Shown here: one piece after another, positions 20,233 to 32,365 of the stretch | How positions within the stretch are numbered: position 1 is the first letter of the stretch | Layout of the letters: every line of letters starts with the position of its first letter | From: an uncultured bacterium | Lineage (GTDB): Bacteria > Verrucomicrobiota > Verrucomicrobiia > Verrucomicrobiales > DEV007 | Reading direction: 5' to 3' | Assembly (NCBI GenBank): GCA_963977015.1 | Contig: CAXBMO010000011.1 | Span: 32,001-96,000, forward strand | Length of the DNA stretch: 64,000 nt | Position numbers and translations under genes: made by a program | The notes under the pieces: model-generated | Database searches by the model: none | What the model was told of the DNA's origin: nothing | Seen by the model: the letters and a program-made list of their open reading frames with translations, nothing else

Positions 20233-21693
20233 ATGAAAAAACTCCTCTTCGCTCTTTCGCTGGTTTTTCTGGCGATCAATTTTGGCGCGGCTGCTGACCG
20301 CCCGAATATCATTTTCATCATGTGCGATGACCTCGGATATGGTGACGTCCAGTGTCTCGCGCCTGAAACGAGCAAGATCGCGACTCCGCATACGGATCAG
20401 CTTGCTGCGGAGGGGATGATTTTCACGGACGCGCACTCCGGTTCGTCGGTTTGCACCCCAACGCGCTATGGACTGATGACGGGGCGCTACAGTTGGCGGA
20501 CCCGGCTGCAAAAGGGCGTCGTCACCGGTTTCGCGCCCTGCTTGATCGACGAGGATCGCCCAACGGTGGCGAGTTTCCTCAAGGCCCAGGGCTATCACAC
20601 CGGAATCGTCGGGAAGTGGCACCTGGATTTCGAGTATCTCGATCCCACCTCCGGAAAACGCTACTCCCCGAAGCAGCACAAGTCTCCTCCGGTCGGTGCG
20701 AAGATTCCGGATGGCCCGATTCATCGCGGGTTTGACTATTTTCACGGATTTCATCACGCGCGAAACATGGAGGCGGTCATCGAGAATGATGAGGTGATCG
20801 CTCACGATCCGGAGGAGAACATGTTGCCGCGACTGACCAAAAAATCGGTGGAATACATCGCCTCGCGCGCCGGGAAAGAGGAGCCGTTTTTCCTTTATGT
20901 GCCGCTCGGTTCGCCGCACACGCCGATTGTTCCGACCGAAGACTGGAAGGGAAAAAGCGGGTTGGGCTCCTATGGTGATTTCGTGATGCAGACCGATAAC
21001 GTGGTGGGAGAAATCTCTGCGGCGTTGCAGGAGCATGGTTTGGCGGACAACACGTTGGTGATTTTCACGAGCGACAATGGGTGCTCCAAAGCGGCAGATA
21101 TCAAGGGGCTCGCGGAGCAGGGCCATATCGTGAGTGCCCATTTGCGGGGATCCAAAGCGGATATCTGGGACGGCGGGCATCGCGTGCCGTTTATTGTGCG
21201 CTGGCCGGGCAAGGTCGAGGCTGGTTCCCTGAACGATCAGCTCATTTGCCTGGTCGATTTCTTCGCGACGCTTGGTGATCTTCTCGACGAAGATATACCG
21301 GCGGGAAGTGCTGAGGACAGCGTCAGTTTTTTGCCTGCTCTTTCCAATCAGCCGATTGTTTCGACTCGGGCGGGAGTGATCCACCACTCCTACAGCGGGC
21401 ACTTCGCCTACCGGCAGGGCAAGTGGAAGCTCGTCTTGGCCCGGGGATCCGGAGGGTGGAGCTCGCCCAATGAGAAGCAGATGCCCAAGGATGCTCCCAA
21501 GGCTCAACTCTACGACATGGAGAATGACATCGGAGAGACGACCAATCTTTACGAGAGCCAGCCGGAGACGGCTGACCGTTTGCTCAAGCAACTTGTCGCT
21601 GATGTCGAAAGCGGACGAAGCACCGACGGTCCGCCATCATCCAATGATGTCGAGAAGATCAATCTGTGGAAGAGCGAACGGGCGAAGAAGTGA
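20233..21693 (+). CDS. Arylsulfatase (formylglycine-dependent)
   Basis: RPNIIFIMCDDLGYGD, CTPTRYGLMTGRY, GKWHL; signal peptide. Confidence 0.95.
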   Translation: MKKLLFALSLVFLAINFGAAADRPNIIFIMCDDLGYGDVQCLAPETSKIATPHTDQLAAEGMIFTDAHSGSSVCTPTRYGLMTGRYSWRTRLQKGVVTGFAPCLIDEDRPTVASFLKAQGYHTGIVGKWHLDFEYLDPTSGKRYSPKQHKSPPVGAKIPDGPIHRGFDYFHGFHHARNMEAVIENDEVIAHDPEENMLPRLTKKSVEYIASRAGKEEPFFLYVPLGSPHTPIVPTEDWKGKSGLGSYGDFVMQTDNVVGEISAALQEHGLADNTLVIFTSDNGCSKAADIKGLAEQGHIVSAHLRGSKADIWDGGHRVPFIVRWPGKVEAGSLNDQLICLVDFFATLGDLLDEDIPAGSAEDSVSFLPALSNQPIVSTRAGVIHHSYSGHFAYRQGKWKLVLARGSGGWSSPNEKQMPKDAPKAQLYDMENDIGETTNLYESQPETADRLLKQLVADVESGRSTDGPPSSNDVEKINLWKSERAKK

Positions 21694-21726
21694 TTCCCAA
21701 CCCCTGCACTGAACCCTATCACGACC

Positions 21727-22659
21727 ATGGCAACGAAGTTTGAAATTCGCCCGATGACCGAAGCCGACTGGGATGAAGTCGGCGAACTCATCTATCTCTC
21801 GACCAACTACTGGTATGAAGCGAACGGACGTTCGCGGATCTTCGGTTGCGACCCGAAAGAGGCACAACTGTTCTGCCGGGTTTACGAGGATCTCGACCCG
21901 GGATGTTGTCTGCTCGCGATTCACCCGGATTCGAAACGCATCATCGGTTCCTGCTTTTATCACCCGCGGGAGACTCATGTTTCGTTGGGCATCATGAATG
22001 TTCACCCGAATCATTTCGGGGCGAAAGTCGCGGGCGGGTTGCTCGAGGAAATCATCTCTCTTGCGGGATCGCAGAATCTCCCGGTGCGTCTCGTTTCGAG
22101 CGCGATGAATTTGGATTCGTTTTCGCTCTACACGAAGAGAGGCTTTCGCTCGATTCGGTCCTTTCAGGACATGTTCGTATCGGTTCCCGGGGATGGATTG
22201 AAGAATCTGCCCCCGGCCCAAACCGTGCGCGAAGCGACGCTCGATGATGTTCCTGCGATGGTGCAGTTGGAAGAAGAGTTGACCGGAATTCGTCGGGCGA
22301 AGGATTATCGATATTTCATCGAGAACCGGCTGGGAATCTGGCATACCTCGGTGTCGACCGATGCAACATCGGGGAAAATCGACGGTTTTCTCAGTTCCGT
22401 CACCCATCCCGCGAGCAATATGTTGGGGCCCGGTTGTGCCAGGACTTCGCAAGCGGCGTTCGACCTGATCGTCGCCGAACTGGATCGTCAGCGGGGCCGT
22501 TCTCCGGTTTTCCTCGTGCCAACCGATGATCAGCAACTGGCTTCCGCTCTCTACGCGATCGGAGCGCGCAATTGCGAACTCCATTTTGCGCAGGTTTGTG
22601 GCGAAACGCAGCCCAGCGCGGGCGTGGTGATGCCCACATTCATGCCTGAAACGGGATAG
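21727..22659 (+). CDS. GNAT-family N-acetyltransferase
   Basis: IRPMTEAD, VHPNHFGAKVAGGLL, SLYTKRGF; duplicated GNAT-like fold. Confidence 0.8.
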   Translation: MATKFEIRPMTEADWDEVGELIYLSTNYWYEANGRSRIFGCDPKEAQLFCRVYEDLDPGCCLLAIHPDSKRIIGSCFYHPRETHVSLGIMNVHPNHFGAKVAGGLLEEIISLAGSQNLPVRLVSSAMNLDSFSLYTKRGFRSIRSFQDMFVSVPGDGLKNLPPAQTVREATLDDVPAMVQLEEELTGIRRAKDYRYFIENRLGIWHTSVSTDATSGKIDGFLSSVTHPASNMLGPGCARTSQAAFDLIVAELDRQRGRSPVFLVPTDDQQLASALYAIGARNCELHFAQVCGETQPSAGVVMPTFMPETG

Positions 22660-22708
22660 TCGGCTTTTTTCCTTTTCTCGATCCTCAAATCCTCCTAGAT
22701 TCACTACA

Positions 22709-23290
22709 ATGGATGGTCGCAGCAGTGCAGATACTTTTCTGGAAAAGAATCGAGAGATTGTTTGCCACGCCAGCGCCATGGCCGATCAGAAGGCCAGTAT
22801 TATTCTGGGATCAGAATTCATTATACTAACCATCATCATCACCGGAATCTGGGTGCCGCAATACGATGCCGCTACGGGAACGGTTTCCCTCCAAACGGGG
22901 GCCGAGCAGATTCCGATCTGGAGTCTCACGCTGTTTTTCTCGATTCTGGTCTCCGTAGCCTTCTCCCTGATTGTGCTAATGCCCAAGTTGGGACCGAACC
23001 GAAGGAAAAGGGTCGTGAAACGAGGAAGTCTGCTTTTCTTCTCTTCAATTGCGGAGATGAACAAGGATGACTACATCAATGAAATGAAGAAGGTGCTGGC
23101 GGATGATGAGTTGATTTACGAAACCATCCTTGGAGATATCTACAATGAATCACGAGTCTTGCGCTACAAGAAATACCACTACCTGAAGCTGAGCTACCTC
23201 ACCTTGATGGTCGGAATCATTCTTACGATGATCGTTTTCTCCGTCGAGCATTTCAACATCATTGATTTGCTGCCCAAGCTACCCCTTTGA
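22709..23290 (+). CDS. Pycsar effector-family (DUF5706/PycTM-like) membrane protein
   Basis: MADQKASIIL-TM...TM-LMP...SLLFFSSI...Y...DIY...VL..KKYHYLKLSY-TM signature. Confidence 0.82.
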   Translation: MDGRSSADTFLEKNREIVCHASAMADQKASIILGSEFIILTIIITGIWVPQYDAATGTVSLQTGAEQIPIWSLTLFFSILVSVAFSLIVLMPKLGPNRRKRVVKRGSLLFFSSIAEMNKDDYINEMKKVLADDELIYETILGDIYNESRVLRYKKYHYLKLSYLTLMVGIILTMIVFSVEHFNIIDLLPKLPL

Positions 23291-23354
23291 TTTTGCAAAT
23301 GATTGGGTTTCGAAGCTCTGATGATTGTGGTTCTCTCATCAGATTTTAAGAGCA

Positions 23355-24755
23355 ATGTCAGACTTCACCATTGATACCAGGCCGACGCTGGACTTTCACG
23401 AGCGATTGAAGGAAATCGCGTTGAACGATACAGATTCCCTGCATCGGGCATTGCTGCAGTCCAATGATGAGATGGCCCGCTTTGGCGATAGTGGATTGGA
23501 CAGCAAACAGATTCTGGATGCTGCATTGACCGCTTTTTTGTTGGATCAAGCCGGAGTCCGGACGCTCTACCAGTTCGCGACGACGCTGCATAATCTGGTC
23601 GAAAAGACTCTCAATTACGTCATCGATTCGCCGGAGCTTCTGCGAACCCATTTTCCCAGCCATGAGCGGATCTTTCCCCACCTGAAGAAGACCGCCGGAA
23701 CCGGGAATTGGCAGGTCATCTCGCGATGCGATTTGGCCATCACACCAGGCGGGGGCATCAAAGTGATGGAGTTGAACAACGGTTGTCCCGGTGGGTATAT
23801 CGTCTCCCGGCACTTGATCGAACCCTCCAAGCACGCTCTGCGGCGGTTTGGGTTTGGCGAGGAGATTGCGGGGTGGTCGTCCGTCACGGTCGAGCCCAAC
23901 GCAATTGTCGACACGCTTCTCAAGTTGGAAACCAAGGCCGGGATTGAGCCCGGCGTCATTGGAATTCTGTATGACGAGAATGAGTTGAAGTTTGAGCTCG
24001 ATGAGTTGGCGCGCGAGTTCGAAAAATCGGGACGGGTGGCGAAGGTGGCCGATGCTCGTAAACTTGAGTATCGGGACGGAAAGCTTTTTGACGGCGCCGA
24101 TTACCTTTCGGCAACCTACAACAAGTTCCGGGTGAGCACGCCGGACAGCCCGAATCATTGCTGGAAAGCGGGATTCGAAGAACGGTATCCGGCTTATCTG
24201 AGGGCGCAGGATGAAGGCGTGGTGGTTACGATCAACAATCTTTGCGGAATGACGATCGCGGAAGACAAAGGTCTGCTCGCCTTGCTGCGGCGTCCGGAAT
24301 TTCAGGAATTGATGTCTCCAGAAGAGCAGGCTCTCGTGCAACATAGCGTGCTTTGGACTGAGCGCCTTGAAGATCGGGAGGTGGAAATTGATGGAGCAAT
24401 GACCAATGTCCTGGAGCATGTGAGGACGAACAAAGATCGTTATGTCATCAAGCCGGCAAATGAGGGGCGCGGCTTTGGAGTCGTGATTGGGAAATCCGCG
24501 ACACAGGAAACGTGGGACGAAGCCTGTAAACTGAATCCGGAGTTGCCGTGCATTGTTCAGGAATACGTCGAGCTGATCTCGATGCCGGTCGGGAACGTGC
24601 GGAGCGGGAAATTTGCGATTGATCCGATGCACCTCACGCTGGCAGTTGCGAATGCAGACGGCACTCCGCATGGCTTGGTGTGCCGGATTTCGAGCGAGTT
24701 GGTGACCAACGTTTCCCAATGCGGATTTGGTCAGGCAGCTTTCCAGTTGAGCTAA
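23355..24755 (+). CDS. Circularly permuted ATP-grasp ligase (glutathionylspermidine synthase-like)
   Basis: RCDL...KVMELNNGCPGG, EDKGLLALL, WT, YVIKPANEGRGFGVVIG, IVQEYV. Confidence 0.82.
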   Translation: MSDFTIDTRPTLDFHERLKEIALNDTDSLHRALLQSNDEMARFGDSGLDSKQILDAALTAFLLDQAGVRTLYQFATTLHNLVEKTLNYVIDSPELLRTHFPSHERIFPHLKKTAGTGNWQVISRCDLAITPGGGIKVMELNNGCPGGYIVSRHLIEPSKHALRRFGFGEEIAGWSSVTVEPNAIVDTLLKLETKAGIEPGVIGILYDENELKFELDELAREFEKSGRVAKVADARKLEYRDGKLFDGADYLSATYNKFRVSTPDSPNHCWKAGFEERYPAYLRAQDEGVVVTINNLCGMTIAEDKGLLALLRRPEFQELMSPEEQALVQHSVLWTERLEDREVEIDGAMTNVLEHVRTNKDRYVIKPANEGRGFGVVIGKSATQETWDEACKLNPELPCIVQEYVELISMPVGNVRSGKFAIDPMHLTLAVANADGTPHGLVCRISSELVTNVSQCGFGQAAFQLS

Positions 24756-24756
24756 A

Positions 24757-25719
24757 CTAAGCCGAAGGCTCCGTCGGCGAGGGCTCGGGCGGGCTGCCCT
24801 TCAGCACGAAGTAGAGTCCGGCGCAGACCAACAACAAGGAAGTCAGCGCAAAATGGGAAACCGGCTCTTTGAGGATCACCGATCCCAGGATGACGCCAAG
24901 TGGCGGGGTGAAGAGCCGGAATACGTTGAGTTGGTTGGCGGAGAATTTGGAGAGAAGAAAGAGCCAAATCAGGAATCCCATCGCTGAGACGACCAAACCT
25001 TGATAAACCATTCCTCCCACGACCGCAGAACTCAAGATCATCGGTTCACCGGATTCCTTGAACAACGCGATGACGCCAAAAATCGCGACGGCAGCGGCTC
25101 CATCCCAGAACGCCAATTTGACGGGATGCATGTGTTCCAGGATTCGTTTCATAACTACGATCTTGGTTCCAACGAAGAAAGCTGCACCAACGACCATGAT
25201 GTTTCCCAGGAGCGAGCCGGATGCCGGGTGTTCGTTGCCCTCAAGAACAAGGAGGGGAATCCCGGAAAATGCGATCGCGATTCCCAGTACAATCCGGGCG
25301 GTGAGCCGGTGCCCTTTCAGAATGAAATGACCGGCAAACGCCGCGAAAAAGGGAAACGAATTGATGAGAATGGTGCTGTGGACGCTGGTCGTTGCACGCG
25401 TTCCCAGCGTAAACAGGCAAATCTGGGTGCACAGGAGAAACCCGCTCAGCATCAGGGCTTTCCATTCATTCCCAACGGGTTTCAGGCCCACGCGGAGTAC
25501 GCGGGAGACCAGGTAGACGATTGGCAGCGCCATCAGAAAGCGCAGCGCCATGATCGTGATGGGCGGAATGCCCTCTAGCGCGACTTTGACGGCTACCGAT
25601 TGCCCGGCCCAGATCGCGGCACACCCCAGAGCCGCGAGTGCCGCCCACCATGCCAACTTGCGCACGACGATCGTCTCCTGGTCTTTAAGGTTGTCTACTT
25701 GATCAATCGGGACTGACAC
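24757..25719 (-). CDS. DMT/EamA-family transporter
   Basis: About 10 TM helices; IWAG, LRF, P..GVILGSVILKE. Confidence 0.92.
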   Translation of the reverse strand: MSVPIDQVDNLKDQETIVVRKLAWWAALAALGCAAIWAGQSVAVKVALEGIPPITIMALRFLMALPIVYLVSRVLRVGLKPVGNEWKALMLSGFLLCTQICLFTLGTRATTSVHSTILINSFPFFAAFAGHFILKGHRLTARIVLGIAIAFSGIPLLVLEGNEHPASGSLLGNIMVVGAAFFVGTKIVVMKRILEHMHPVKLAFWDGAAAVAIFGVIALFKESGEPMILSSAVVGGMVYQGLVVSAMGFLIWLFLLSKFSANQLNVFRLFTPPLGVILGSVILKEPVSHFALTSLLLVCAGLYFVLKGSPPEPSPTEPSA

Positions 25720-25724
25720 CAGCT

Positions 25725-28700
25725 TTAGTCGTTGCTTCGAAGGGTTGCTTGCATAGAAGCTCCTGCGAGTTCGGCTGTGGGGCTGGGATTGTCAAGTCGC
25801 GACGAAATCATGGCTTGATCGGCCAACTCGCTACGAAGGGCATTGGCGCGGTTGCGAATGGCATTCAAGTAGGCGTTTCCAATGTTGTTGGACTGCCAGG
25901 GTTTGGCGTAAAACTTGTAGGCTTGGTCGAGTTCCTCTCGATCTGGTGACTGGATTCCCTTACGGACATACTCGCAAATCAGCAGGAGCAGCTGGCGATC
26001 GTCTCGCGAAATGACGGTTTCTGTATCTTGGCTCTGGCCAACAACGATCGCTCGAAGCGCTTCCTTGACGTTTCCGTCGGAAAAAGCGCGCGCGACGGTC
26101 AATTCCAGGGGGGCCTTGTCTTGCGGGATCTGGATTTCCTTCAGCATTTCGGCACAGAGTTCCGGATTGCCAAGCATGGCTTCGATCCAGGCTGCCCGGT
26201 AGGTCTGACTCAAATAAATGTTGTGGCGGGGATCGGTTGGTTCATTCCACTTCATTTTTTCTGCGGACTCGAGATAGCCGTCCAACTCCAATTTCGCTGC
26301 TTCCAGATTTCCAGAGACGAAAATGTGGTAGTCGGCAAATCGTTGCCGGAAGTTGGGGAGAAACGATTCCCATTGGCTAGCCTCCGCGAAATATTCCCAA
26401 TCTTCCGGGTTCGAAGCTTTTTCGATCGATTTCTCCAAGGCGAGTTCGGCGTTGTGGGCATTGCCGGAGAAATGCGCCGCGAGTGCCTTCAGGAGGTTGC
26501 AACGAATGTACTGCCGACACACGTCGAGATAGATTTCACTTTCTTCCGTCGGGCCGGGCAAGGAATTCGTTTCCGGGTCCTTTCCTTCTGCAATGACCCT
26601 GTCGATGGTTTTCTGTCGAGTCGCGGCGGCCAATTCCGCCTGTCGTTCGCTCTTGCCGAGCTTCCAAAACTCGAGATAAAAGTGAGCACGGTGCTGATTG
26701 ATGACCGCAGCGTAAAGATGGTCGTCGGGGCTGGGAGAACCGGCAAGTTGAATCGCGGGAAAGCAATCGCCCAACCGGCCCATCGCGCGGTTAAAGACCT
26801 CCTCGATCCGATCTTCGTCATAGTTGCCGACGCCCGATCGATCGGAAGCCTGGGTCATGGTTGACTGGCGGACCATGCTTTCCCCAAGTAGGGCCAAAAC
26901 GTAAACGTGCAGAAGGCTGTCCGTGACGGAGTGGAGATTGGTTTCCGCCTGCGTGAGTTTCTGGATGACATCGAGAAACTCGTTTCGGCGTTCGTAATGG
27001 AGACGAGCCGCGTCGGAATAACAAAGCCCGAGTAGTCCATCGACAATTTCGCCTTCGGCAGATTGCCGTTTGGCCCGCATTTCTTTGATGTAGAGCTCTT
27101 CGGCTTTCTTGAAGGCAAAGAGCGCGCGATCGTAGTCGTTGGAGGACTTTCCGAATCGACTCCTGATCGATTTTAGTTGTTCGAGACTGGCTGGATCATT
27201 GGTATCGTTGGGCGCAGGCTTGAGGCTGGTCAGGAGATTCGCGATCAAATGCCAGTCGGTTGCGCTGATTTCGGAACGTTTCGTGATCTGCGCGATGAGC
27301 TCGTAGCAGGCGGGCCTTCCCAATTCGCGAATGTATTGGCCTTGGTCGGCTTTCATCAAGTTGCCGATTTCGATCAACTTCGGAGTGAGCGGACTCGCGG
27401 ATCCTGGCAGCCACCGCTCCTTCAACTTGGAGTAAAAGTCCGATGCTTCGTGGGAAACGAGCATGTGATGCTTGAGATCCGCCAGATTCACCCCACGGCC
27501 CCGCTCCTTGTAAAACGTTCGCCGCATTTCCGGGGTAAACCAGGGCGAGACATCGAACCACCAGGACTGACCGTCCAGTGCCGGCGCCAGGCTGACGAAC
27601 AACGCCCGTTCCCGTTCCTGCGGTTGCCGAACGATCATATTGAAGAAGTAAAACCCCAAACCTACGAGAAGGAGAACGGCCGCGATCTTCATCGCATATT
27701 GGAAGCCCGGCCTCAGTTTCGGAACGATGTCGTAGACGGTTTCGACCTGATCCTGGAGCTTGACGGTCGCGCCAGCGATTTGGCGAACCTTGAAGCGCCG
27801 GTTTCGGTCGTTAATGTGGGTCCGGGCCGAGCCGGAGACACGGATGGCGCCGGGATAGGCCGAACCTGGCAGGACGTCCACCGCCTCGGCCGCAGCAGAG
27901 CCTTCCACCAATCCTTCTGTTTTCTCCATGACCAACCCGTAGTGAACCGCGCCCCGCGTTTGGTCTTTCGTGGCGCGCTTGACATCAATGAGAAACCGAA
28001 TGCCGTCCTGAACCCGCTCAAACGCGAAGACGCGGGTCAATTCTGAAACATCCTTGGAAATCTTGGCTTCCTTGCCCTTGGCGCGTTGGGCCGCGCGTTC
28101 AATCGCCGGAGCGAAGGTGTCGATCGCTTCACCGGCGCTCACTGCCGCCAGGGCTGCGGGTTTCAACTGGGTTTGTCCTTTGCCCTTGCGCGGCGTGCGC
28201 GGCTCCAACCCGGGCGGGCAATATTCCCAGACCTCGACATCTTCAACGATTCCCTGAAGGCTGACGGCGTTGTGGCGATGCACCTTGCCGTCGGAGGTTT
28301 CGTCGCCCAGCACGTCCTGAATCTGGAAGGCGACGGAAGGGGAGAGGATGATTTGATCTTCCTGGGAAAGGTCGTTCAAGCGATGAACCCGGTCGACAAA
28401 CGAGCCTTGCAGGGTGCCTTCGGCATTTCGCATGACCTTTCCCGTATCAATCGAAAGGTGATACTGAATGTGGGGACATTCGTAGCCTGCTGGCGCGGGA
28501 ATCCGATAAGGCTCTTTCAGCACTTCCAGCGTCCAGAGCCGGGCTGGGTCGGGATCGGGAAAGGAGAGAAAGCAGGAATCGCCGGTTTGATCGACGATGT
28601 TCCCGCCGAATTGTTTGGCCAGAGTCGCCGTGTATTCGCGAAACGGCTTGAGCACCTTGTTCTCATAATTGGCGAGGCGCTCTTCCTGATTCGCTCCCAT

Positions 28701-29330
28701 CAAGGGTTTGATGGAAGTGGAATGCAGGATGTCGATCACGACCAGCGACAACCGCACGATTTCGCCCTCCACTTCACCCGAAGCGCCGGTTTGCTGGATC
28801 GCGCGAAGCTGATAAATGCGGGTAGGGTCGCGATTTTCGAGCAACCGGTGGCGACCGAGAAGCAACACCTCCAATTCGCCCATGTCGCTGGCGGTCAAGC
28901 TTTCCGCGACTTCGTCTTCAATGTAAATTTCGTTGGGTCCCGCACCGCCGGCGAGGGCGTGCGCGTGGGCGACTCCCCGAAAGTCCTCCTCATCGCTCCC
29001 TCGCGACGAACAGGAAATTCCGACATAAAACTGGATCGGATCTTCCAGTCCCTTGGGAACAAAACGAATGCTGTTTTCGTCACTGCCGACGAGCGCTCTT
29101 GCGATCGTGATGATTTGGGATGATCCGCTCGTTTCGATCACGAACGGGCTCACCTTGTTCGAGAGAGAGGCGTTGTGTTCTCCGCACAGCTTCTGGAGCT
29201 TGTTGGCGACCGGGCGATCGACGCGCTGCAGATAGAGATCGGGATCTGCTGAATCTCCCAACTCCTTCTTCAAGGCGTCGGCGTTCGCGATATCGACAAC
29301 GATAACGAAGTTCTTTTCGATGTTTCTCAT
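25725..29330 (-). CDS. Membrane-anchored protein: three class III nucleotide cyclase-like domains + TM + large helical (TPR-like) C-terminal region
   Basis: Central domain VVIDILHST (D200)...GGNIVDQTGD (D251)...SIDTG...QGSFVDRVHRL (R317)...QIILS...SLQG; degenerate copies either side; TM about aa 549-568. Confidence 0.78.
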   Translation of the reverse strand: MRNIEKNFVIVVDIANADALKKELGDSADPDLYLQRVDRPVANKLQKLCGEHNASLSNKVSPFVIETSGSSQIITIARALVGSDENSIRFVPKGLEDPIQFYVGISCSSRGSDEEDFRGVAHAHALAGGAGPNEIYIEDEVAESLTASDMGELEVLLLGRHRLLENRDPTRIYQLRAIQQTGASGEVEGEIVRLSLVVIDILHSTSIKPLMGANQEERLANYENKVLKPFREYTATLAKQFGGNIVDQTGDSCFLSFPDPDPARLWTLEVLKEPYRIPAPAGYECPHIQYHLSIDTGKVMRNAEGTLQGSFVDRVHRLNDLSQEDQIILSPSVAFQIQDVLGDETSDGKVHRHNAVSLQGIVEDVEVWEYCPPGLEPRTPRKGKGQTQLKPAALAAVSAGEAIDTFAPAIERAAQRAKGKEAKISKDVSELTRVFAFERVQDGIRFLIDVKRATKDQTRGAVHYGLVMEKTEGLVEGSAAAEAVDVLPGSAYPGAIRVSGSARTHINDRNRRFKVRQIAGATVKLQDQVETVYDIVPKLRPGFQYAMKIAAVLLLVGLGFYFFNMIVRQPQERERALFVSLAPALDGQSWWFDVSPWFTPEMRRTFYKERGRGVNLADLKHHMLVSHEASDFYSKLKERWLPGSASPLTPKLIEIGNLMKADQGQYIRELGRPACYELIAQITKRSEISATDWHLIANLLTSLKPAPNDTNDPASLEQLKSIRSRFGKSSNDYDRALFAFKKAEELYIKEMRAKRQSAEGEIVDGLLGLCYSDAARLHYERRNEFLDVIQKLTQAETNLHSVTDSLLHVYVLALLGESMVRQSTMTQASDRSGVGNYDEDRIEEVFNRAMGRLGDCFPAIQLAGSPSPDDHLYAAVINQHRAHFYLEFWKLGKSERQAELAAATRQKTIDRVIAEGKDPETNSLPGPTEESEIYLDVCRQYIRCNLLKALAAHFSGNAHNAELALEKSIEKASNPEDWEYFAEASQWESFLPNFRQRFADYHIFVSGNLEAAKLELDGYLESAEKMKWNEPTDPRHNIYLSQTYRAAWIEAMLGNPELCAEMLKEIQIPQDKAPLELTVARAFSDGNVKEALRAIVVGQSQDTETVISRDDRQLLLLICEYVRKGIQSPDREELDQAYKFYAKPWQSNNIGNAYLNAIRNRANALRSELADQAMISSRLDNPSPTAELAGASMQATLRSND

Positions 29331-29492
29331 GGTTTGCCTCCGGTCTACACTACAATACCCAAAATACTATGGCAGGCAGGATTCTTGCAATTCTAAAATG
29401 ATGTTGGAATTGGGGGCTTGTCGCCTCAGTTTGGGACCCATTCAGGGGCGAATGCTGAGGCGAAAGGACGGGGGCGGACCTCCGGCCTCGCA

Positions 29493-30911
29493 TTAGCGAT
29501 CTCCCGGGTGAAGACCGTATTGGCGGAGTTTTTCGCGCAGGGTTAGCCGGGAAACTCCAAGCCAGCGAGCTGCTTTGGCCTGGTTGCCTCCCGAGCGTTT
29601 GATCGCCTGACCGTAGACTTCGCGCTCAAAATTGGCGGTTAGCTCGGGGAGGGCGGCTTCCAGTTCACCTTCCACCACCTTCGACAGCGTTTCGGCAACA
29701 AGTTGGTGAAAACTCGGGACCGACTCGCGTTCGCCCATTTCGGTATCCTCCAGGATTTCCCGGCAATCATGCCAGCCGATCGTGTAGCCGCGGGATGCCA
29801 GAAGTGCCCGGCGAATCACATTCTGAAGTTGGCGGATGTTTCCGGGCCAGTCCTGGTCCTGTAGAAATTCCACCGCTTTCGGTGCGATCGATGGGCTGTC
29901 GATCCCGTATTCCGTGGCAAAACGTGTCAGAAAGTAGTCGATCAGTGCCGGAATGTCTTCGCGGCGGTCGCGGAGCGGCGGGATCGTGACTTTCGCCACG
30001 TTCAATCGGTAGATCAGGTCTTCGCGAAATTCGCCGTCGGCGACCATCTTTTCCAGGTTGCGATGCGTCGCCGCAATAACCCGGACATCGACCGGGATGT
30101 CCTTGTTCGCGCCAACCCGCTGAATCGTCTTCTCTTGAAGGACGCGCAGCATCTTCGCCTGCAACGCGAGATTGAGGTCGCCAATCTCATCGAGAAACAG
30201 CGTTCCACCGTGAGCCTGCTCAAACCGGCCGACCCGCATTTTGTCGGCGCCGGTGAACGCGCCTTTTTCGTGACCAAAGAGTTCGCTCTCCAACAACGCA
30301 TCCGGGATGGAGGCGCAGTTGACCGCGACGAACGGTTTGTGGGCGCGGTGCCCGTGTTGGTAAATCGCCCGCGCGATTAGCTCCTTACCCGTCCCGGTCT
30401 CCCCGAGAATCAGCACCGTCACCGGTTGCGCCGCGATTCGACCCAATTGCTTGTAGATATCGCGCATTGCCCGGCTTTTGCCGACAATCGTGTCCTGATC
30501 CGGGTAGACTTCGCCAATTTCGACGGGTTTTGACATGCGGCGCGCGTCTTCCACCGCATTTTTCACGACATCGTTCAGTTCTTCGATGTCGATCGGCTTG
30601 AGCAGGCAGTCGTAGGCACCTGCCTGGATCGCGCCAATCGCGATATCGCTGCTTTGCTCCCTCGTTAGCATCACGATGGGGAGTTTGGGATGCTTGGTCT
30701 GGAATTCGCGAACCAGTTTCAGGCCGGAAAAACCCTCGAAAGAGAGCTCGGTCACCATACAGTCGAATTGGCCCTTCTTGAGCCAGGCTTCGGCTTCGTC
30801 CTGGCGACTCGTCGTGTCGCAGGAAAATCCGCGAACGCGCAGCAAATCCGCCAATTTTTCGGCTTCCTCCGCTTCATCGATGACGAGAATGTGAGCGTGG
30901 TTTGCTGGCAC
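29493..30911 (-). CDS. Sigma-54-dependent NtrC-family activator (REC-AAA+-Fis HTH)
   Basis: GETGTGKE, ESELFGHEKGAFTGA, LFLDEIG, WPGNIRQL, NQAKAARWLGVSR; start set at GTG 30911 (uncertain). Confidence 0.93.
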   Translation of the reverse strand: MPANHAHILVIDEAEEAEKLADLLRVRGFSCDTTSRQDEAEAWLKKGQFDCMVTELSFEGFSGLKLVREFQTKHPKLPIVMLTREQSSDIAIGAIQAGAYDCLLKPIDIEELNDVVKNAVEDARRMSKPVEIGEVYPDQDTIVGKSRAMRDIYKQLGRIAAQPVTVLILGETGTGKELIARAIYQHGHRAHKPFVAVNCASIPDALLESELFGHEKGAFTGADKMRVGRFEQAHGGTLFLDEIGDLNLALQAKMLRVLQEKTIQRVGANKDIPVDVRVIAATHRNLEKMVADGEFREDLIYRLNVAKVTIPPLRDRREDIPALIDYFLTRFATEYGIDSPSIAPKAVEFLQDQDWPGNIRQLQNVIRRALLASRGYTIGWHDCREILEDTEMGERESVPSFHQLVAETLSKVVEGELEAALPELTANFEREVYGQAIKRSGGNQAKAARWLGVSRLTLREKLRQYGLHPGDR

Positions 30912-31147
30912 AGTTAGGGAGCATAGATCAGGTTGCGGATTCGCGCAATCGACAGGGTTTACCGATTCAACTTGGCAACCCAAGCCGATTTTCGTGCTCA
31001 GTCGCCTTCCATTTCGACCTCGTGGACGAACTGGGCGATTTCCACACCGCGTTGAGGCGGGTGAGACGAGGTCGCGGGGCAGGGGACGTGATTGCTGGGT
31101 GACAAGACTCAAAGGAAGGGCCATGGATGACCAAACTCTCAAATTTT

Positions 31148-32365
31148 ATGCTAACGACGATTCGCTCCTCCCTCATCCTTGCCCTTTTTTCGGCGGCGGG
31201 ATTGCTTCCCTGCCACGCTCAAAACAAAGCCTGGACACCGCCGCCGGTTCTGGAAATCCAGAAACTCATTCCCACTCAACCGGCAGAAGCCGCCGCGCTC
31301 ATTCGAAAATCCTGGGGAACCAAGGCGCTAACGACCAAAGCATTGCGGATCGAGAAAACGACCGTTTTGTGGGCCTCGCTCAATGATGAGCCAGTCGCGG
31401 TCGTCAATCCGGATTCGGGCGAGGTGATTGGCGAAATGGCGAAGCTGAATGAAGATGGCCTTCAAGCGCTGGCGATCACGTTTTCCAACGGGACATTGCT
31501 CAACTACCAATTGCGGGCAGGCGAAAAAGTTTTGGGTGGCGGATCGTTGAAGATCGAGCACTACGACTACCTGCCCGATTCCCTCAAGCAGGACGGAGTC
31601 CCGGAAGGGCAGGTTCATCGCCATGAGTGGAATGACTCGAAGATTTTCCCGGGCACACTGCGTGAGTATCTCGTCTACATTCCCGCGCAGTACGATGGCT
31701 CAAAGCCTGCTGCGCTGATGGTATTTCAGGATGGCTTGTGGCACGCCGATCCCAAGGGCGGGTTGCGCGCGCCAATCGTCTTCGACAATCTGATCGCCAA
31801 AGGTGAGATGCCGGTGACGATCGGTGTTTTCATCAGTCCAGGCCGCCTGGCTTCTCAAAAACCGGGTGATAAGCCGCGAAATCGCGGTTTCGAATACGAT
31901 TCCCTGGGGCCGGCCTACGTGAATTTTCTTCTCGAAGAGATCCTGCCGAACGTGGTCGCCGATCATGATTTAAACTTGAGCATGGATCCCGGGATGCGGG
32001 CCATTGCCGGCGGATCGAGCGGAGCTTCCTGTGCCTGGACTGCCGCGTGGGAGCGACCCGATCAATTCGGCAAAGTGCTCGGCTGGGTTGGATCGTTCGT
32101 CGATCTGCGGGGCGCCAATGCCTATCCTTCCCTGATTCGAAAAACGGAGCGAAAGCCGATCCGGGCCGTGTTTTTGGCCGGTTCCAACGATGTCGACAAC
32201 CGATTTGGGAATTGGCCACTCGCGAACCAACAGATGGAAGCGGCGTTGGCCTTCATGAATTACGATTATCAGTATCGCTGGGGGCCATGTTTTCATGGCA
32301 GCAAACACGCCTCAGCCGAGCTGCCGGAGATGTTGCGCTGGCTCTGGCGGGATTGGAACGACTAA
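31148..32365 (+). CDS. Secreted esterase, enterochelin-esterase-like alpha/beta hydrolase
   Basis: LMVFQDG, NRGFEYD, IAGGSSGA nucleophile elbow, FGNWPLAN, HGSKH. Confidence 0.85.
   Translation: MLTTIRSSLILALFSAAGLLPCHAQNKAWTPPPVLEIQKLIPTQPAEAAALIRKSWGTKALTTKALRIEKTTVLWASLNDEPVAVVNPDSGEVIGEMAKLNEDGLQALAITFSNGTLLNYQLRAGEKVLGGGSLKIEHYDYLPDSLKQDGVPEGQVHRHEWNDSKIFPGTLREYLVYIPAQYDGSKPAALMVFQDGLWHADPKGGLRAPIVFDNLIAKGEMPVTIGVFISPGRLASQKPGDKPRNRGFEYDSLGPAYVNFLLEEILPNVVADHDLNLSMDPGMRAIAGGSSGASCAWTAAWERPDQFGKVLGWVGSFVDLRGANAYPSLIRKTERKPIRAVFLAGSNDVDNRFGNWPLANQQMEAALAFMNYDYQYRWGPCFHGSKHASAELPEMLRWLWRDWND

Follow-up and report, generated by a model that had tools for sequence, protein, structure and literature searches.

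Four tightly packed genes in the genome of an uncultured verrucomicrobial bacterium (order Verrucomicrobiales, DEV007) raise the question of whether they act as one system and, if so, what kind of system it is. They lie in a stretch of 64,000 nucleotides (nt), hereafter the window, which covers positions 32,001 to 96,000 of contig CAXBMO010000011.1 (assembly GCA_963977015.1) and is part of contig C11 of a 6.9-Mb genome. On the forward strand, a PycTM-family gene, P0001 (22709-23290; 193 amino acids (aa), DUF5706, three transmembrane (TM) helices, AT-rich), is followed by a ligase gene, P0002 (23355-24755 from an ATG, 466 aa; an alternative TTG start at 23325 would give 476 aa). On the reverse strand, the receptor gene P0004 (25725-29330, 1201 aa) leads across a gap of 5 nt (25720-24) into the EamA/DMT transporter gene P0003 (24757-25719, 320 aa), and the stops of P0002 and P0003 converge with a gap of 1 nt (24756). 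An earlier reading made from the DNA letters (the sequence-only reading) had proposed that P0004 makes a cyclic nucleotide that signals to P0001, as in the Pycsar system, with the ligase and the transporter adding a small-molecule output. A check of the open reading frames confirms its coordinates for all four genes, both gaps and the two convergent pairs. Our analysis leads to another account of the locus: with a probability of about 60%, its core is a three-gene module of sensor, ligase and exporter, shared by Pirellulales and one verrucomicrobial genus, and the PycTM-like gene stands apart from it.

The distribution of the ligase defines the module. Homologues of P0002 were sought in 401 Pirellulales genomes (the order of genome G434), in 401 genomes from the phylum of G434 and in 401 Verrucomicrobiota genomes. 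They are found in 12 of the Pirellulales genomes, in three of the phylum sample and in one of the Verrucomicrobiota, which is the window genome itself; the family comprises 43 clusters in all. At nine of the 12 Pirellulales loci (L033, L038, L039, L064-L068 and L071) the ligase gene adjoins a gene encoding the C-terminal domain of the receptor, and an EamA homologue (34-38% identity) is present at four of the 12 (L033, L038, L039 and L068). The P0002 homologues of L033, L038 and L039 are 36-41% identical. The gene order varies: receptor, ligase and EamA genes are co-directional on one strand in L038 and L068 and convergent in L033 and L039, while L065, L066 and L067 have the receptor followed by the ligase, with a sulfotransferase gene intervening in L065 (8728-9609) and L066 (10314-11201). 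No homologue of P0001 is present at any of the 12 Pirellulales loci, including those with a cyclase-bearing receptor (L065 and L067). The four-gene co-conservation anticipated by the sequence-only reading is therefore borne out for ligase, EamA and receptor, which recur across two phyla, and fails for the PycTM gene, which is also missing beside the paralogue of P0004 in the same genome. A genome of the same genus (G003) keeps the whole arrangement and is too close to be informative. A literature search of limited coverage retrieved no paper describing the module.

What is conserved in the receptor is the membrane-spanning and C-terminal part. An alignment scan of species genomes with the P0004 family yields 18 loci, of which 16 are planctomycete and match the TM and C-terminal part only. 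A TM helix is located by hydropathy scan at residues 549-567 (27630-27686, reverse strand), followed by a helical TPR-like domain of about 600 aa (25728-27608, reverse strand), delineated with a custom hidden Markov model (HMM) and by comparison of loci, which carries a juxtamembrane WWFxxxPW motif. All 13 full receptors examined have one TM helix, with the WWF motif 40-50 residues after it. The custom HMM matches full length in 25 loci, with E values from 1e-43 to 1e-193; Pfam gives weak TPR matches only for this domain, and Protein Atlas gives generic TPR leads below 0.9. We infer that the WWF/TPR-like domain is extracytoplasmic, because the kinase and cyclase heads on the other side of the helix need cytoplasmic nucleoside triphosphates. 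In L037, a signal-like N-terminus is followed by a caspase and then by the WWF domain without a TM helix between them, which places caspase and WWF domain on one side, and the C-terminal caspases of L038 and L068 likewise share a side of the membrane with the WWF domain. The conserved part of the receptor would thus be separated from the ligase by the membrane, and what links the two would therefore most likely be a small molecule or an outside cue common to both, and not direct contact.

The cytoplasmic heads, in turn, are exchanged. A Pkinase domain occupies this position in L033, L041, L042 and L046; L038 combines Pkinase with a C-terminal caspase, and L037 has an N-terminal caspase. The receptor of L065 carries a PF00211 domain (Guanylate_cyc, 28.2 bits) ahead of Pkinase, and that of L067 is likewise cyclase-bearing. 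The planctomycete Ser/Thr kinase receptors, some of them accompanied by an extracytoplasmic-function (ECF) sigma factor, share with P0004 a homologous TM and WWF/TPR domain and have, like it, the ligase and in some cases EamA as neighbours, whereas P0004 differs from them in its triple cyclase-homology head; the cyclase and kinase receptors of L065 and L067 are intermediate between the two. Since most receptors of the module carry a kinase or caspase head, the module is not at heart a cyclic-nucleotide system.

The head of P0004 appears, from sequence profiles and structural models, to consist of three tandem class III cyclase-homology domains, of which the middle one alone is a candidate for activity. 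Domain 1 (residues 1-182; 28785-29330, reverse strand) is degenerate, with the acidic residue D13 at the first metal position and the second metal Asp lost. Domain 2 (residues 186-376; 28203-28775, reverse strand) keeps D200, D251 and R317 and has substitutions at D247 and D313. Domain 3 (residues 400-545; 27696-28133, reverse strand) is degenerate and without metal Asp residues. Neither the whole protein nor four pieces of it give a cyclase match in Pfam, NCBIfam or PADLOC, and PF00211 does not match the separated domains even at E <= 10. A profile built from four members of the P0004 family matches the class III cyclase 3mr7 from the PDB (E 1.1e-5, residues 231-372). In a Foldseek search with an AlphaFold2 (AF2) model of residues 1-560, 183 PDB entries match at E <= 0.001, and the top matches listed are all class III cyclases, including two-domain cyclases over about 470 columns. 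The match for the fold of domains 1 and 2 has an E value of 2e-10, and domain 2 superposes on mycobacterial Ma1120 with a TM-score of 0.82 and a root-mean-square deviation (rmsd) of 3.0. Comparison with hhalign relates domain 1 to domain 2 (92%, E 6.1e-7, 138 columns) and domain 3 to domain 2 (87%, E 3.8e-6, 125 columns). The model is good for domains 1 and 2, with a predicted local distance difference test score (pLDDT) mostly of about 80-87 in domain 1, and of low confidence for domain 3. The proposal that P0004 is a multi-cyclase membrane receptor is upheld by these profile and fold matches.

Residues of the active site support the assignment of domain 2 and set it apart from known cyclases. 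The metal-binding residues D200 and D251 and the arginine R317 are invariant in all eight family members, in domain 2 only, and align with the DIxGST, GD and ARL motifs of the L065 and L067 receptors and with 3mr7. D247 and D313 align with a Lys and an Asn of 3mr7, respectively, at positions that we take to be those of the purine-specifying Lys and the transition-state Asn of adenylyl cyclases; an Asp at the Asn site is also present in the L065 and L067 receptors. These replacements, next to an invariant metal pair, agree with the earlier suggestion of a non-standard base-specificity pocket. In comparison with mammalian C1-C2 cyclases, soluble adenylyl cyclase and Ma1120, P0004 has the same fold, the metal Asp pair, the Arg and degenerate partner domains. 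It differs in having three domains instead of two, in the Asp residues that replace Lys and Asn, in failing PF00211, in the lack of a canonical pseudo-dimer in the model and in the large C-terminal TPR-like sensor beyond a single TM helix.

This architecture is very rare. The P0004 family forms eight clusters at 90% identity among 5.8 billion proteins, and its whole N-terminal part is matched by only five representatives in 1.84 billion proteins. At E <= 0.001 there are 267 matches, almost all of which cover only domain 2, and the best relatives of that domain are N-terminal PF00211 domains on kinase receptors, on a CHAT protein and on a NACHT protein. Relatives such as L065 and P0070-P0093 do pass PF00211; the PF00211-positive N-terminal domains of the L065 and L067 receptors are 29-30% identical to domain 2 (29% for L065). 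A metagenome scan with the N-terminal alignment recovered only the sequence of the window itself and its paralogue (L049, L050).

P0002 is firmly assigned, on the basis of its model and family profile, as a predicted circularly permuted ATP-grasp acid-amine ligase with a fold like that of glutathione synthetase, GspS and YgiC. The single sequence stays below the Pfam gathering scores (CP_ATPgrasp_2, 27.6 against 32 bits; GSP_synth, 25.8 against 29.3 bits), while 18 of 23 family members match CP_ATPgrasp_2 and 15 of 23 match GSP_synth at E <= 0.01, and a profile of the 23 members matches YgiC (1.4e-6) and Cp1B (7e-4) in the PDB. The AF2 model is of high confidence (pLDDT 89.1, predicted TM-score (pTM) 0.89). 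Its best Foldseek match is human glutathione synthetase (E 3.4e-18, TM-score 0.66-0.68, about 486 columns), and plant and yeast glutathione and homoglutathione synthetases, Cp1B, YgiC/YjfC, GspS and trypanothione synthetase are found as well, over a range of E from 3e-18 to 1e-12 and of TM-score from 0.55 to 0.68. The ATP-grasp identity proposed earlier is thus sustained by fold and family profile, with Pfam matches that are sub-threshold. The closest folds are all small-molecule ligases that join carboxylates or peptides to amines. In PMC12568646, YgiC and YjfC are described as peptide-spermidine ligases and Cp1B as an E-64 amide ligase. P0002 shares the fold of these enzymes and of glutathione synthetase and GspS, with weak profile matches and 13-19% identity, and differs from them in belonging to a separate family, found only in Pirellulales and a small number of Verrucomicrobiota records. 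P0003 matches EamA (PF00892, 107.7 bits) in two stretches and passes the Pfam cut-off, as the sequence-only reading had it. Its scores against NCBIfam equivalogs are well under their cut-offs, and no specific EamA substrate can therefore be assigned.

Taken as a module, the three genes would work as follows. The receptor P0004 would consist of an external WWF/TPR-like sensor, one TM helix and an exchangeable cytoplasmic signalling head. P0002 most likely acts in the cytoplasm, where it would join a carboxylate, perhaps of a peptide-like compound, to either an amine or an amino acid, and P0003 would export the amide-linked product or its precursor. The receptor may sense a small molecule or an external cue, perhaps the exported product itself, and thereby set the output of ligase and exporter; in the window genome, two copies of domain 2 would pair to make a cyclic nucleotide that mediates this control. 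The module has probably moved between Pirellulales and this verrucomicrobial genus by transfer, and a kinase head would have been swapped for the triple cyclase-homology head in the verrucomicrobial genus.

Several observations weigh against this model. The exporter is found at just the four of 12 Pirellulales ligase loci named above, and three further ligase loci (L069, L070 and L072) have no receptor within the available DNA, two of the three contigs being shorter than 4.6 kb. The nine positive loci represent a small number of related architectures and cannot be counted as independent cases. Conversely, a ligase gene within 8 kb is missing from 13 of the 18 receptor-type loci. The window genome itself encodes a paralogue of P0004 that is 50% identical (G000:C2:300304-303825; L004:8251-11832, reverse strand), with BatD-like, TRAP-transporter, DUF547 and RtcB genes as neighbours and neither a ligase nor an EamA gene nearby; as the genome holds one P0002 match, the receptor family can work without the ligase. 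As to the cyclase head, the AF2 model (pTM 0.44) does not arrange the domains as a canonical head-to-tail pair and deviates from soluble adenylyl cyclase by an rmsd of about 21 Å. Asp stands at two positions, D247 and D313, where canonical cyclases have residues for catalysis or specificity, and PF00211 does not recognise P0004. The topology of the receptor is drawn from hydropathy alone. Finally, the separation of P0001 from the module has to be set against its position: it lies on the ligase strand, 49 nt from the gene of a GNAT acetyltransferase and 64 nt from that of the ligase, each of the three close relatives (G000, G003 and a 74,472-bp contig with P0055, P0014 and P0005) keeps the PycTM-like gene, and P0001 is the only protein nearby predicted to respond to a cyclic nucleoside monophosphate (cNMP).

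The identity of P0001 itself is clear. It matches Pfam PycTM (PF18967) with 69.7 bits against a cut-off of 27.2 (E 3.3e-19) and the PADLOC PycTM model with 3e-20, and it is the sole PF18967 match in the genome. The claim of a Pycsar-type effector of the PycTM/DUF5706 family is in this sense correct, and the family searches proposed for the locus succeed for P0001 and fail for P0004, which matches neither PycC nor any other cyclase family. Its AT-rich composition is also recovered: the segment 22800-23699, which covers P0001 and the start of P0002, has a GC content of 0.46-0.48, compared with 0.54-0.60 on either side. A PycTM gene and a P0004-type cyclase protein occur together in one genus only. 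PycTM is not found beside the paralogue L004, nor in the 8 kb upstream of an orthologue of P0004 with 52% identity, whose downstream side ends at the contig edge.

To place P0001 among its relatives, we surveyed a 301-genome sample of the class, in which a PF18967 gene is present in 11 genomes (12 loci), and searched eight of these 11 genomes throughout for PF00211. A PF00211 cyclase stands beside the PycTM gene in one of the eight (G215); in the other seven, the nearest one is 24 kb off or on a different contig. The window genome has seven PF00211 genes, all on other contigs. The caveat already attached to the sequence-only reading, that DUF5706 genes also occur alone, was well placed. G215 serves as a control: on the reverse strand (L082:668-1974), the gene of a PycTM/2TM effector of 177 aa (1.7e-41) lies 2 nt ahead of that of a PycC cyclase of 256 aa (E 6e-20), which matches 13 PADLOC PycC models, and the pair looks by sequence like textbook canonical Pycsar. 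At four PycTM-like loci in closer relatives, the neighbours are cytochrome c, alpha-2-macroglobulin, an unknown 808-aa protein or GNAT. The last is the sole neighbour pairing of P0001 that recurs. In G028, from a different family of the same order (L016:5404-7042), a 310-aa GNAT directly precedes the PycTM-like gene; the GNAT proteins are 40% identical over their full length and the PycTM proteins 27%, and a tblastx comparison of L016 with the window shows nothing in common beyond these two genes. Most simply, then, P0001 is an orphan or GNAT-linked gene beside the module and not its effector.

GNAT and PycTM may form a two-gene unit at these loci. As a general partner of PycTM, GNAT was rejected: PycTM is present at two of 14 GNAT loci drawn from the phylum sample, and GNAT at two of the 12 PycTM loci. 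It was also rejected as a partner of the ligase, which lies within 1.5 kb at none of the 13 other GNAT loci, and no GNAT homologue was found in the Pirellulales module loci examined. The PycTM orthologue of G003 (G003:C57:6588-7244; L005/L031) has 218 aa compared with the 193 aa of P0001 and matches it in one frame in overlapping pieces, 1-65 and 45-192, which points to an internal insertion or duplication; its public record annotates just a 106-aa product.

How the locus would function as a new Pycsar-like system, with the P0004 cyclase gating P0001 and with ligase and exporter as accessories, can be judged against this background. P0001 is a true three-helix member of the PycTM family, a class III cyclase-homology protein is encoded 2.4 kb away, its domain 2 keeps D200, D251 and R317 in a pocket of non-purine type, and all four genes stay together in three close relatives. 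In addition, the Pucsar preprint links Pycsar-related cyclases of varied specificity to effectors with three TM helices. The difference from Pycsar is that no standalone PycC is in an operon with P0001, whose neighbours are GNAT and the ATP-grasp ligase, and that the pair is not co-conserved. Two genes separate P0001 from P0004, which is encoded on the other strand, whereas the G215 pair is operonic; domain 2 matches no PADLOC PycC model at E <= 1, whereas the control cyclase matches 13; and the nearest relatives of domain 2 are N-terminal domains of kinase, CHAT and NACHT proteins and not standalone Pycsar cyclases. Co-occurrence does not extend past one genus, the paralogue has no PycTM nearby while the genome has no PycTM other than P0001, and the Pirellulales loci lack it throughout. 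None of the 15 homologues of P0001 is placed with P0010 and P0018 on a 112,465-bp contig, which is weak evidence. The signalling link from cyclase to PycTM is therefore not sustained, given the absent PycC match, the lack of co-conservation and the kinase and caspase heads elsewhere. We regard such a system as quite unlikely, and do not lower it further because the PycTM-like gene is kept in all three close relatives, precedes the ligase gene in the same direction at a distance of 64 nt, and has no rival nearby as a reader of cNMPs. A related idea is that the ligase makes a small peptide-like amide, that EamA exports it and that the WWF/TPR-like domain of the receptor senses it. This would be a quorum-sensing-like loop particular to Planctomycetota and Verrucomicrobiota, read out by kinase, caspase or cyclase heads, and in this verrucomicrobial genus a cyclic nucleotide would open the PycTM-like channel, a Pycsar effector thus having been taken over for signalling outside phage defence. 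The idea seems to us highly improbable.

The remaining alternatives concern the module as such. It could be a biological-conflict (immune or cell-death) system of the caspase, CHAT, TPR, kinase and cyclase type, in which the ligase makes or modifies an effector molecule and PycTM might be a further death effector. Caspase and CHAT genes do flank or fuse to the receptor in L037, L038 and L068, and the closest relatives of domain 2 include CHAT-cyclase and cyclase-NACHT fusions. Cyclases fused to STAND NTPases make up an 'immunity clade 1' in the Pucsar preprint, whose figure abbreviations also include TPR and caspase-associated domains, and the nearest solved ligase, Cp1B, is described as making a cysteine-protease inhibitor. 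Against this, PADLOC gives no match for P0002, P0003 or P0004, the neighbours in the window are of housekeeping type (sulfatase, MBL-fold protein, esterase and sigma-54 regulator), the sensor is probably extracytoplasmic, unlike cytoplasmic STAND sensors, and L033 has an ECF sigma factor ahead of its kinase receptor, as is typical for routine signalling at the envelope; on balance we consider a conflict system unlikely. The tight adjacency of the ligase with one receptor family could also mean that the two are enzyme and substrate, the ligase modifying the receptor or another protein in the manner of RimK or tubulin ligases. ATP-grasp enzymes include protein-modifying ligases. The nearest folds of P0002, however, are the small-molecule ligases glutathione (GSH) and homoglutathione synthetase, GspS, YgiC and Cp1B, the conserved receptor part would lie outside the cell, beyond an ATP-dependent enzyme, the cytoplasmic heads are not conserved, and the ligase is found together with an exporter and with enzymes that tailor small molecules, so that protein modification appears very unlikely. 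That the genes are neighbours by chance, with no functional link, might be argued from the many kinase receptors of Planctomycetes and from the 13 receptor loci without a ligase. A coincidence seems hard to reconcile with the same domain of about 560 positions at nine of 12 ligase loci from independent species, in three gene orders and two phyla, and we give it a very slim chance.

The module of sensor, ligase and exporter has several implications. A sensor domain and a ligase of glutathione-synthetase fold travel together across two phyla while the head is swapped between kinase, caspase and cyclase, which amounts to a natural experiment in which one input is rewired to different outputs. The module points to a putative small molecule of poorly studied marine and soil Planctomycetota and Verrucomicrobiota. 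For the annotation of defence systems, the survey of the class indicates that a PycTM match by itself does not signify Pycsar there. An attractive but unsupported Pycsar-like reading is thus replaced by a module that can be tested.

Further genes accompany the module at individual loci. An M20 peptidase gene is located downstream in L064 (6903-8126), L065 (11456-12838) and L066 (6692-7867); together with the sulfotransferase of the latter two, it may point to a product that is sulfated or resembles a peptide, and to hydrolysis of that product. The ligases of L069, L070 and L072 are 36-39% identical and have a GFO/IDH/MocA oxidoreductase gene downstream. In L070 and L072 a rhomboid protease gene, the ligase gene and the oxidoreductase gene follow one another, and the upstream gene of L069 belongs to no Pfam family. 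In L038 (4071-13082) and L068 (4975-14835), a 779-aa caspase protein or a 1065-aa CHAT protein is encoded next to the module, which, with the caspase-ended receptors, suggests proteolytic signalling outside the cytoplasm. In L033 (6013-9806), the kinase receptor gene overlaps at its start with a gene for a planctomycete-type ECF sigma factor, as would suit kinase-to-ECF signalling, with the neighbouring ligase-EamA operon as a possible target.

In the window, a scan for promoters and terminators over 21500-31400 yields two and 10 candidates, respectively, compared with 3.6 and 12.2 in shuffled sequence, none above the shuffled level. The GNAT acetyltransferase gene (21727-22659, forward strand) directly upstream of P0001 encodes a two-domain protein of 310 aa with matches to Pfam Acetyltransf_1/18/7, and is preceded on the same strand by an MBL-fold gene and a sulfatase gene. 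On the other side, 162 nt upstream of the P0004 gene and in the same direction, lies the gene of a sigma-54-dependent response regulator of 549 aa (29493-31142, reverse strand; Pfam Response_reg, Sigma54_activat and HTH_8), which we report as genomic context.

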